Source: Escherichia coli (GTDB lineage Bacteria > Pseudomonadota > Gammaproteobacteria > Enterobacterales > Enterobacteriaceae). From it: a stretch of 21,358 nt of DNA. How positions within the stretch are numbered: the stretch's first letter is position 1; every line of letters begins with the position of its first letter. The stretch lies in assembly GCF_003334765.1 (NCBI RefSeq), contig NZ_QOWT01000048.1. One strand, given 5' to 3'. The position numbers are program-made. Positions 15,001 through 18,624 of this stretch are shown piece after piece.

Positions 15001-18000
15001 CTAATTTTCAGTTGAAAATGGGGAGTGCTATTATATTAACTAATGTATAGGGGGATTTTTAGAAATAATAAAATAAATATTGGCGTTGAACAATAACGCC
15101 AATATCGTGGTGAATATGATTTGCTGACTGGCAATATTAACGAAGGGTTAAAACTCTCTGAAAAGAGAGTTTATCATTAGTATGGCTACATAGAAGTTAT
15201 GTCATAGCAATATAAAATAGCTTTTATTAGCTTTTAAAATAAAATCCTGATGAATATAATGTGCTGAAAAACCCTATCATATAGATATTGATACGAGTTA
15301 TCAAGCGCTGTTTAATCTGATTGCGATATACGTCCTTCCTGAATATCCTTGCACTTTACTGATATATTAACGTCTCTCTCAAGAAATATGAGTTCATTTC
15401 TAATGATATTTTACTTCCTTCTTTTGTTATACATCAATTGTACAATTAGATGTATATAATAAAGTGTACTAATGTATTCTGATATTATTAATTTTATAAT
15501 CTCTTTTTCGATGTCTTGTTTTAATTCCATATCATCCCCACATAAAACACAGAGTTAACTCTATCACTTACCCCATTACTGGCCCGCTGCCGCAGATATT
15601 CCCGTGGCGAGCTTCATGGAAGGAGATCACTCAATAACGTCCATCGAGATCGGGTAATAACCCTCTGTGTCAGCATAGTTGTCGCCTCAATTTTTTAAGG
15701 AGATAACAATGCTAGGTGAACTCAAAGAGAAAGGACTGATATGGCTTTGCCACCATACTGCTGGTCACATCGTCAGATAGCCCGTAAGCTGAAGATAGAC
15801 TAGCCCCCAGAATCTCCAGACAACCAATATCACTTAAATAAGTGATAGTCTTAATACTAGTTTTTAGACTAGTCATTGGAGAACAGATGATTGATGTCTT
15901 AGGACCGGAGAAACGCAGACGGCGTACTACACAGGAAAAGAGCGCTATTGTTCAGCAGAGCTTTGAACCGGGAATGACGGCCTCCCTTGTTGCCCGGCAA
16001 CACGGTGTGGCAGCCAGCCAGTTATTTCTCTGGCGCAAGCAATACCAGGGGGCTGAGGGCCAATGGAACGAAAACGTACGTTAAGAGCATAATTTGTTGT
16101 TTGTATTGAATTTAGTAATAAAGCCCGTGGGGGCTTTTTTATGGTGTGCCGGGCATGCTCAGCAGCTCGGGGGTGAAAGTCCCCTGTCCAGCCTGATGGT
16201 GGCGAAGGACTCGTGAAGCGCAAGGGTGCCGTCGTGAGGCGGGATCTGAAGGAAGCGTGGAGCAAAACCATGACCTGACGAACAGAAATCCGATATGAGG
16301 CCTACCCGGCTGGCGGAGCAAGCCATTGATTGCAAAGGCCATAACCATCAAGAGCCGGGGTGGTAGATTGGGCAGGTGTGTGGTGAAAGCGGCTGAGCTT
16401 ACCCCGGGAGGCCTGTCTGGCGTTCTGTATTCAGAACTGAGCGTACCGTAAGGTGCGCTGACCGGCGGACAGGAGTCAGCAGAGGGCATAGTAGGACAGG
16501 CGCGTCTGAAGGCCCGAACGGTAATGAGTGACGAGTATCAGCGGAGGTTCTGAACGGTCATGCAGCAGAAAACGTATCGCGACCCTGATGCAGGAAGACG
16601 GGGTGAAGCCCCTGACGCCGGTTCTCAGGGGGCTGAAACCGTGCAGGCACCGACGACCAGAGAAAGTCCATCGTCAACAGCGTGGCTGATGGAAGCCATC
16701 TGCGAACCAGTCAACCTCAGGCATGCCCTGAAAAGAGTGAAGGCCAATAAAGGTGCGGCGGGAGCCGACGGCATGAGCGTAAGCGAACTGCCGGACTATC
16801 TGAGACACCACTGGCCGGAACTGAAAGCGCAACTGCTGTCCGGCAGCTACCGCCCATCCCCTGTAAGAAGAGTGACTATCCCGAAGCCCGGCGGCGGCGA
16901 ACGTCTGTTGGGCATCCCGACGGTGGTGGATCGCTTTATCCAGCAGGCGATGATGCAGGTGTTGCAGGCACAGTGGGATGCGACGTTCAGCGACAGCAGC
17001 TACGGGTTCCGGCCCGGACGCTCGGCGCATCAGGCAGTGAAGCAGGCTCAGAAATACATCGAGTCGGGCTACAGCTGGGGGGTTGACCTCGATCTGGAAA
17101 AGTTCTTCGATCGGGTGAATCACGATGTACTGATGAGCCGGATAGCGAAACGAGTATCGGATAAACGGGTGCTGTCACTTATCCGCGGGTACCTGAATGC
17201 AGGTGTGATGGAAGCGGGTCTGGTAATGCCGGTGACAGAAGGGACGCCGCAGGGCGGCCCACTGTCGCCACTGTTATCGAATCTGCTGCTGGATGACTTC
17301 GATAAGGAACTTGAGAAACGCGGCCTGAAGTTCGCCCGCTACGCAGACGACTGTAATGTGTATGTGAAGAGTGAACGGGCAGGCAACCGTATGATGGCGG
17401 GGCTGACGCACTGGCTGAACCGGAAACTGAAGCTGAAGCTCAACGCGAAGAAGAGCGCGGTAGCGCTTCCGGAGACGCGTAAGTTCCTGGGTTACAGCTT
17501 CAGGAGGGGCAGAAAGGTGTGGTGTGTGGTGTCGCCGGAATCGGTGAAGCGGTTCAAAACCCGGATAAGAGAACTGACGGGGCGTAACACGGGCAAAAGC
17601 CTAGAGCAGCTTATCGAACCGTTAAAGCGATATCTGACGGGATGGAAAAGCTACTATGGACTGAACCAGTGGCAAACGCTGATGAGAGATCTGAACAGGT
17701 GGATAAGGCGAAGGTTGCGAAGTGTCCTGTGGAAACAGTGGAAAACGGGCAGCAAGCGCTTCAAAGAGTTGCGCAGACGGGGAGTAAGCAAAGACCTTGC
17801 AGCGCAAACGGTAGGGAGTTGCCATAAGCAATGGCGGATAAGCTGTAGTCCGGCACTGAGCATAGCACTTCCCAATCGCCTGTTCGTCAGACTGGGCCTA
17901 CCGGAGTTATAGGCAGGCGACGATAAACATAACCGAACTGCCGTATACGGACCCGTATGTACGGTGGTGTGGGAGGAGGCTAATCGTGAGATCAGCCCCT

Positions 18001-18624
18001 ATCCCGATCTCTCACCATAAGAGTGGCGGTGATTATTAACCATAAAATAAAACGCCTACATCTTGAAAATTCTGCCTCCCCCCCAAGATCAAAAAAGATA
18101 CAACACGATAAGGTGAAAGTATGTCCAGAGCAGAATTACTGCGTGATATTGAAGCAATTATTTCTGGGGCAGGCTTTGAGCTAAGTAACTCAGAAGCTCC
18201 GATGACGTTTAAAAAAAATGTCAGTTATCCTGGTCTGATCGCGGGAAAGAATGAAATAGCCCACTTCCTGTTGTTCACTAATACCGGTACCGTTCAAATA
18301 ACGGCTAAATGGCAGGAAGTGAGTGGTACCGCAATAGAGAAGCTAGGCCACACAGTTCTTGATGCACAACACACACAACATCAGAGTTATTTCGTTGTCT
18401 GTGGCGGAGGAAAGCTGGTAACAAGAGCCATTGATTACTTAAACGCCCATCGAACATTAGCTCCTCGTCTTAGAGCAATGCAAGTAAAAGAACTGGAATC
18501 AGCATTGGAAGAAATCATCTAAGGCCCTACGGGGCTTTTTATGTCTGAAATTTCGAGCACCTCTCCTCGAAAGGTGTCACGTATTGCGTAGAAAATATTA
18601 GTTAATTGTGTGAATATTGGCCTA

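Follow-up and report, generated by a model that had tools for sequence, protein, structure and literature searches.

Which kind of retroelement lies directly behind a terminator hairpin on Escherichia coli contig NZ_QOWT01000048.1 (NCBI RefSeq assembly GCF_003334765.1), and is this copy still in working order? We addressed this question in a stretch of 21,358 nucleotides of the contig (hereafter the window, to which all coordinates refer), where a first-pass annotation made from the sequence alone had proposed a class C group II intron that invaded a transposon-borne terminator on a virulence plasmid. Our comparative analysis points to a bacterial group II intron retroelement of class C (IIC), complete in length, at positions 16144-18008, inserted at a terminator in a Tn3-family transposon end on an enteroaggregative pAA plasmid, a reading to which we assign a probability of roughly 0.93. 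The intron, its parts and its target site all lie on the + strand. Its architecture and target are typical of class C and the element is of an already known kind, with a UGC triad in domain V as its sole oddity.

The boundaries of the intron were set by an uninterrupted allele of the same site. Many plasmids have identical flanks without the insert, and in one of them, the Salmonella plasmid pCFSAN017963_01 (L001), the junction reads ...GGGGCTTTTTTATG|CTCTCACC... (in shorter form ...TTTTTTATG|CTCTCACC..., and in longer form ...AAAGCCCGTGGGGGCTTTTTTATG|CTCTCACCATAAGAG...). Because this empty site sets both ends, the complete intron corresponds to 16144-18008 (1865 nt, from GUGUG to ...CCCGAU), and the ligated exons across 16143/18009 would read ...UUUUUUAUG|CUCUCACC.... 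The insertion is precise relative to the uninterrupted allele, and relatives at 79-96% identity align over the element from intron base 1 to base 1865. The contiguous, uninterrupted site is present in 38 complete E. coli genomes; the full-length intron is found at the window site in at least 13 records, and a 5'-truncated copy in at least 6 more.

The 5' exon ends in an intrinsic-terminator-like hairpin with its T-tract (16120-16140), a stem-loop of the type recognised by IIC introns. This hairpin (AAAGCCC-GTGG-GGGCTTT) has a GC-rich 7-bp stem at 16120-16137 and a 4-nt GTGG loop, and the six T's of the tract (16135-16140) are followed by ATG (16141-16143) and then by GTGTG (16144-16148). The ATG constitutes the final 3 nt of the 5' exon and corresponds to intron-binding site 1 (IBS1, AUG), whereas the empty-site junction places IBS3 (C) at the first base of the 3' exon, 18009. 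The hairpin was also picked up by a consensus terminator scan, is unaltered at the intron-free site L001, and gives the 32-nt 5' exon a minimum free energy of -12.8 kcal/mol, a value reached by 0.7% of background 32-mers. The first-pass annotation was exact in placing GTGTG three nucleotides past the T-tract; the intron span that it gave, 16121-18018, is wrong at both ends, as 16121 belongs to the hairpin and 18018 lies 10 nt beyond the true end at 18008.

The intron encodes a 450 amino acid protein (16560-17912) with a reverse transcriptase (RT), an X/maturase domain and a C-terminal segment. Pfam matches were limited to RVT_1 (3e-41) and GIIM (2e-18), and no HNH/endonuclease domain was found by Pfam in the protein, in agreement with the earlier description of a reverse transcriptase with a maturase domain and no recognisable endonuclease. 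The NCBIfam model TIGR04416 (group II intron reverse transcriptase/maturase) matches at 424 bits (cut-off 300). The class of the protein was judged by comparison with all solved structures, and in this ranking the three class C proteins, namely GsI-IIC RT of Geobacillus stearothermophilus (PDB 6AR1/6AR3; 472 bits, 2e-140), the IIC maturase of Eubacterium rectale (351 bits, 1e-103) and the IIC RT domain of Roseburia intestinalis (280 bits, 2e-82), score far above LtrA (IIA; 131 bits, 4e-37) and the TeI4h protein (IIB; 122 bits, 3e-34). The alignment with GsI-IIC RT is gapless over 406 residues with 54% identity; it covers the reverse transcriptase (YADD included), thumb/X and C-terminal regions and reaches the C-terminus of that endonuclease-less enzyme. 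The open reading frame (ORF), named ltrA by RefSeq in matching plasmids, begins as annotated about 40 codons ahead of the point where the solved class C enzymes start aligning (LMEAICE...; 16560-16690), and the window protein thus has about 40 N-terminal residues beyond GsI-IIC RT. This annotated start at 16560 is putative, and its ATG, together with a GGAGG 12 nt upstream, is invariant across all relatives.

The RNA that surrounds this ORF has the general features of a group II ribozyme, including a 5' end of the GUGYG type (GUGUG at 16144), a bulged A18001 and a 3' end of the AY type (...GAU). A covariance-model scan, as suggested in the first-pass annotation, matched the Rfam families group-II-D1D4-3 (137 bits, E 1e-29) and D1D4-1 (54 bits, at 16438-16514) upstream of the ORF, and a local search matched domain V/VI at 17936-18008 (38.7 bits, E 1.6e-5). 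The same annotation had made the intron depend on a domain V/VI structure at the 3' end; the match found there ends on the very base that the empty site sets as the 3' boundary. Together with the hairpin, the boundaries and the protein matches, these RNA matches far exceed what chance would produce. RNAalifold, applied to 7 relatives, gave 112 predicted pairs for domains I-IV and 27 for domains V-VI; compensatory changes occur at 23 and 9 of these, respectively, some of the latter in the domain VI stem. It placed the bulged A18001 7 nt ahead of the 3' splice site. From these data we delimited a compact domain I (16149-16407; RNAalifold and D1D4-3) with a single distal hairpin that bears exon-binding site 1 (EBS1), domains II (16408-16477) and III (16484-16516), which together span 16408-16516 (RNAalifold consensus and D1D4-1), domain V (17937-17968; Rfam and comparison of relatives) and domain VI with its bulged A18001 (17971-18004; RNAalifold and sequence comparison).

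Compared with IIA and IIB ribozymes, those of class IIC are of abbreviated size, have a domain V distal stem that is 2 bp shorter, and carry CGC in place of AGC as the catalytic triad; they also have an 11-nt AGGAA bulge in the epsilon-prime region, an EBS1-IBS1 pairing of 3-4 bp, no EBS2 and, in the 5' exon, a stem-loop at the IBS2 position (Toor et al., 2006; PMC1702495). In the window intron, domains I-III span just 373 nt, and the distal stem of domain V has 3 bp, with cmscan leaving a 4-nt gap relative to the Rfam consensus. The AGGAA bulge of the epsilon-prime region corresponds to the unpaired AUCUGAAGGAA (16244-16254), which matches 11 unpaired model positions in the D1D4-3 alignment; within it, UCUGAAGGAA (16245-16254) is unchanged across relatives and base 16244 varies between A and G. 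In the predicted structure, domain I has no d2/EBS2 arm and the hairpin fills the IBS2 position of the exon. The triad (17939-17941) is CGC in all relatives, including a copy at the same site (L013), and UGC in the window copy and in L004, L012 and L014. With a protein that is nearest to the solved class C maturases and with the IIC ribozyme traits present, apart from the UGC of the window copy, the class assignment proposed at first stands.

Evidence on target choice came from the relatives, which were obtained from searches of plasmids and complete E. coli genomes and represent seven independent sites. Apart from the window site, these comprise two prophage regions of E. coli, a locus downstream of cdiI and sites on plasmids from Klebsiella, Providencia and Aeromonas. 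At all seven sites a GC-rich hairpin with a T-rich tail lies immediately 5' of GUGUG (tail 0 nt from the intron), the hairpin occupying exon positions -4 to about -25, which bears out the terminator stem-loop preference of class C introns that had been invoked for this locus. The genes flanking the seven sites are unrelated, and those upstream are ordinary genes, e.g., cdiI, an antirepressor gene and parA. In five of the seven sites the stability of the hairpin exceeds that of at least 97% of the 32-mers drawn as background from those loci; that of the Aeromonas site has -10.1 kcal/mol, with 7% of the background as stable.

The same relatives define the pairing between intron and target. The distal hairpin of domain I bears EBS1 (CAU, 16324-16326) in its terminal loop, and EBS1 pairs with IBS1 at 16141-16143. 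Among the relatives, EBS1 loops of CAU, AAA, AUA, AAG and AUG complement the respective exon ends AUG, UUU, UAU, CUU and CAU, so that 3 bp are paired in 7/7 sites and both sides vary at each of the three pairs. The covariation score of this pairing was reached by 0/500 shuffles and by no slid register, and a fourth pair forms in 2/7 sites only, which keeps the interaction within the 3-4 bp of class IIC. EBS3 is tentatively placed at G16297, in the internal loop AUGAG, a candidate partner of IBS3 (C18009) that is compatible with the first 3'-exon base in 5/5 relatives (G-C, G-C, G-U, G-U and A-U).

Among the copies, L002 (Klebsiella quasipneumoniae NZ_CP092403.1, locus 3345-3380) departs from all others inside domain VI (…GATCGTGATCTTGACCCTCCATCTCCGAAC…). 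The 3' end of its intron appears to be rearranged or replaced, and the otherwise near-identical L009 has a normal end.

Several observations weigh against the assignment of 16144-18008 to a class C intron with all its parts in order. The domain V/VI match, at 38.7 bits, falls just below the gathering score of 40. The hairpin of the cdiI site (L006) is the weakest of the set (-8.1 kcal/mol), with 12% of the background as stable, and EBS3 is not fixable by covariation, as positions 16297 and 16299 are equally compatible. A search of 15800-18300 at consensus stringency revealed no sigma-70 promoter, whether outward or internal, and the element sits behind a terminator, which makes expression of the intron uncertain. 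Finally, the window copy has UGC and not the CGC that defines class IIC, owing to a C to T change at 17939, the first triad base, relative to all relatives compared (leaving a U-G wobble), and a G to A change at 17982 introduces an A-C mismatch into the domain VI stem. Because of these last two changes, the current catalytic competence of the window copy is doubtful.

The alternative that survives best builds on these two changes. It accepts class C by descent and holds that the window copy is a dead fossil, in which the altered triad and domain VI would block splicing or reverse splicing, so that the plasmid merely carries the element along; we consider this a serious possibility, somewhat short of an even chance. 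The triad has been described as more conserved than any other part of group II introns, usually in the form AGC or CGC (PMC7583470), and both transitions are common to L004, L012 and L014 but absent from all relatives elsewhere and from the copy of pDEC15A-1 (L013) at the same site. This last copy preserves the ancestral triad CGC and an undamaged domain VI stem, although with a split ORF. Other sister copies are damaged as well: the ORF of L012 is frameshifted, and the copy of L014 is cut off by ISEc43, as are the other 5'-truncated copies listed, including that of the E. coli 55989 plasmid. In addition, the full-length copies listed at the window site all adjoin the same transposase fragment, and the two sister copies that were read have an identical, exact 3' junction, as would fit one insertion followed by inheritance. 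The simplest reading is that the copies at the window site descend from one insertion and were then inherited with the plasmid while undergoing piecemeal decay.

Other features speak against the fossil reading. The 450 amino acid ORF of the window copy is intact and has kept YADD, and its alignment with an active enzyme is gapless; the U of UGC can still wobble-pair with its G partner, and the first triad position already differs between classes (A or C). The UGC triad most likely marks decay, and the window copy may be a decaying one. It is conceivable, but unlikely, that the window lineage is a IIC intron still working with a non-canonical UGC triad (a U-G wobble in the first triplex layer), a proposal based on the intact ORF and on the presence of the variant in several plasmids. 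If an intron with UGC did splice or move, it would imply more tolerance at the most conserved active-site position of group II introns and the spliceosome than is usually assumed.

The remaining alternatives question the class or the nature of the element itself. An endonuclease-less intron of another class (D, E, F or endonuclease-less CL), adjacent to a terminator by coincidence, is highly improbable. Classes D, E and F likewise have no endonuclease domain (PMC4424553), and our protein comparison covered the solved structures, none of which comes from these three classes, but this explanation is effectively refuted by the 54% gapless identity to a class C enzyme, the AGGAA bulge, the short distal stem of domain V, the CGC triad of the relatives, the 3-bp EBS1 and the position of 7/7 relatives behind hairpins.

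We regard as equally improbable a place for the intron in the IIC-attC lineage, whose targets are the attC recombination sites of integrons rather than terminators. These sites are also imperfect inverted repeats, and the lineage is found in Enterobacteriaceae (E.c.I7 and S.ma.I2; PMC3001079). However, none of the seven sites has an integron context; in the window, the intron has a Tn3-family repeat and genes for a PD-(D/E)XK protein and a resolvase as neighbours, and the targets are short, perfect, GC-rich hairpins with T-runs downstream of ordinary genes.

The idea of a retron, a diversity-generating retroelement or a defence (Drt/Abi) reverse transcriptase with a coincidentally intron-like RNA, of which the first-pass annotation had named the retron and the diversity-generating retroelement as outcomes that would undo its proposal, is refuted, since the retron and Drt families of NCBIfam give only weak, secondary matches, which (at most 68 bits, E 1e-18 to 1e-9; the top retron match, retron St85, has 67.5 bits vs a cut-off of 235) all stay far under their own cut-offs as compared with 424 bits for TIGR04416, the GIIM maturase domain is present, and a full covarying ribozyme surrounds the ORF in a clean insertion relative to the empty site.

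For the class C intron at 16144-18008, the exact insertion, the class, the association with a hairpin, the EBS1-IBS1 pairing and the domain content are direct observations, and a route of mobility can be proposed from them and from the literature. Transcription would yield a ribozyme that folds into domains I-VI, and the intron-encoded reverse transcriptase/maturase would bind it and aid splicing. The resulting ribonucleoprotein would locate new DNA sites through three contacts, among them the 3-bp EBS1-IBS1 pairing (here CAU with AUG) immediately 5' of the insertion point and a further 1-bp EBS3-IBS3 pairing; class C introns prefer terminators as targets (reviewed in PMC4424553), and the one used here would be the terminator just inside the ISEc63-like Tn3-family terminal repeat on the enteroaggregative E. 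coli pAA plasmid. On this route, drawn from the literature, the RNA would then reverse-splice into a DNA strand, and cDNA synthesis would be primed by the nascent strand at a replication fork. Such fork priming would be required because the protein has no endonuclease, and in endonuclease-less introns the nascent strand at the fork serves as the primer for reverse transcription (PMC4424553).

Among known systems, the window intron resembles terminator-targeting IIC introns such as B.h.I1 (Bacillus halodurans; PMC1702495; Robart et al., 2007, cited in PMC4424553) in its endonuclease-less protein, compact ribozyme, AGGAA bulge and short domain V distal stem, in the CGC triad of its lineage, and in a 3-bp EBS1-IBS1 pairing, the lack of an EBS2 arm and an insertion point that a few nucleotides separate from the hairpin and T-run of a terminator. 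It differs from them in sequence, in its gammaproteobacterial plasmid hosts and, for the window copy, in having UGC for CGC. According to their published description (PMC3522654), Di.ze.I1 and So.gl.I1 of Enterobacterales are class C introns as well; both occur downstream of Rho-independent terminators and share conserved IBS1 and IBS3 sequences.

A member of the same class is known from the same host species, namely E.c.I6 of E. coli CFT073 (NC_004431 4320108-4321914; Leclercq and Cordaux, 2012; PMC3522654, Table S2), which likewise lies behind a hairpin and T-run (AAAAAGCCAGCAG...CTGCTGGCTTTTTGTTAT|GTGCGCC). We considered whether the window intron could be E.c.I6 itself and rejected this, as the published CFT073 coordinates give patchy similarity of only 69-86% to the window intron. 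The E.c.I6 ORF is disrupted. E.c.I11, a name used for an intron on pEC958, a plasmid outside the 25 records listed, could not be linked to the window intron, and no database name was established for the latter; searching the literature for group II introns of pAA/enteroaggregative plasmids yielded none.

The target hairpin belongs to a transposon end. At 16048-16085 (+ strand), a Tn3-family (ISEc63-like) transposon has a terminal inverted repeat of 38 bp, with one mismatch to the repeat at the empty site (0 chance matches expected), and the hairpin begins 35 nt inside the Tn3-family terminal repeat. On the outer side, the repeat is abutted by an IS2 orfA fragment (ORF 15842-16084, with a match to IS2 TnpA), and a PD-(D/E)XK gene and a serine resolvase gene come after the repeat and hairpin. 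In the L010 plasmid, the transposase beyond the same end is named ISEc63 family (Tn3-like) by the Prokaryotic Genome Annotation Pipeline (PGAP). The ORF next to the resolvase gene (19922-20953, + strand, 343 amino acids) was considered as the N-terminus of a Tn3 transposase but has no Pfam or NCBIfam match; for this reason, the transposon assignment is based on the terminal repeat, the resolvase gene and the ISEc63 call in L010. These three elements agree with the initial proposal of a transposon-borne terminator. In the matching plasmid, PGAP lists the product of ORF 19922-20953 as a hypothetical protein.

The proposal of a virulence plasmid holds as well. The window and plasmid 2 of E. coli AF39 are 99.8-99.9% collinear, and because the RefSeq annotation of that plasmid includes aggR, aap, aar and aatPABCD, we identify it as an enteroaggregative pAA-type virulence plasmid. 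The intron adds one mobile layer to the mosaic of such plasmids, as it lies within a transposon end flanked by insertion sequence fragments.

For annotation purposes, we suggest that "class C group II intron" be used as the label of the region, with its exact ends set at 16144 and 18008, and that its ltrA gene not be read as a stand-alone reverse transcriptase or defence gene. The locus raises no new biological question, and it illustrates how IIC introns choose their sites, as close relatives carry five different EBS1 triplets, each fitted to its own exon.

Two further features were recorded elsewhere in the window. At about 7297-9085 (+ strand), broken frames include a signal peptide like that of serine protease autotransporters (MNKIYCLKYCH...), and the region corresponds to a frameshifted S6 family peptidase pseudogene in the annotation of the matching plasmid. 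At 729-853 (- strand), Rfam identifies the Hfq-binding small RNA STnc490 (140 bits); the match sits in a sequence with up to 35 occurrences per E. coli genome, beside a gene to which the annotation of the matching plasmid assigns an IS200/IS605 family transposase.

The window also contains relics of other introns, which brings it to pieces of three class C introns within 21 kb. First, a 91-nt fragment at 9425-9515 (+ strand) corresponds to the last 91 nt of E.c.I6, from domain V to domain VI, with 92% identity. It has a CGC triad and an Rfam Intron_gpII match of 47 bits, the rest of that intron is missing, and at 9516 it abuts an antisense orfA of the IS3 family (IS1203-like). Second, 874-907 (+ strand) corresponds to the last 34 nt of an E.c.I6-like domain VI (94% identity), with an IS200 copy ending some 8 nt away. 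An insertion of this second relic after the terminal hairpin of IS200 was considered and rejected, since IS200 homology extends to about 866 and the GTGCAC is itself IS200 sequence; the relic simply abuts the IS200 end.

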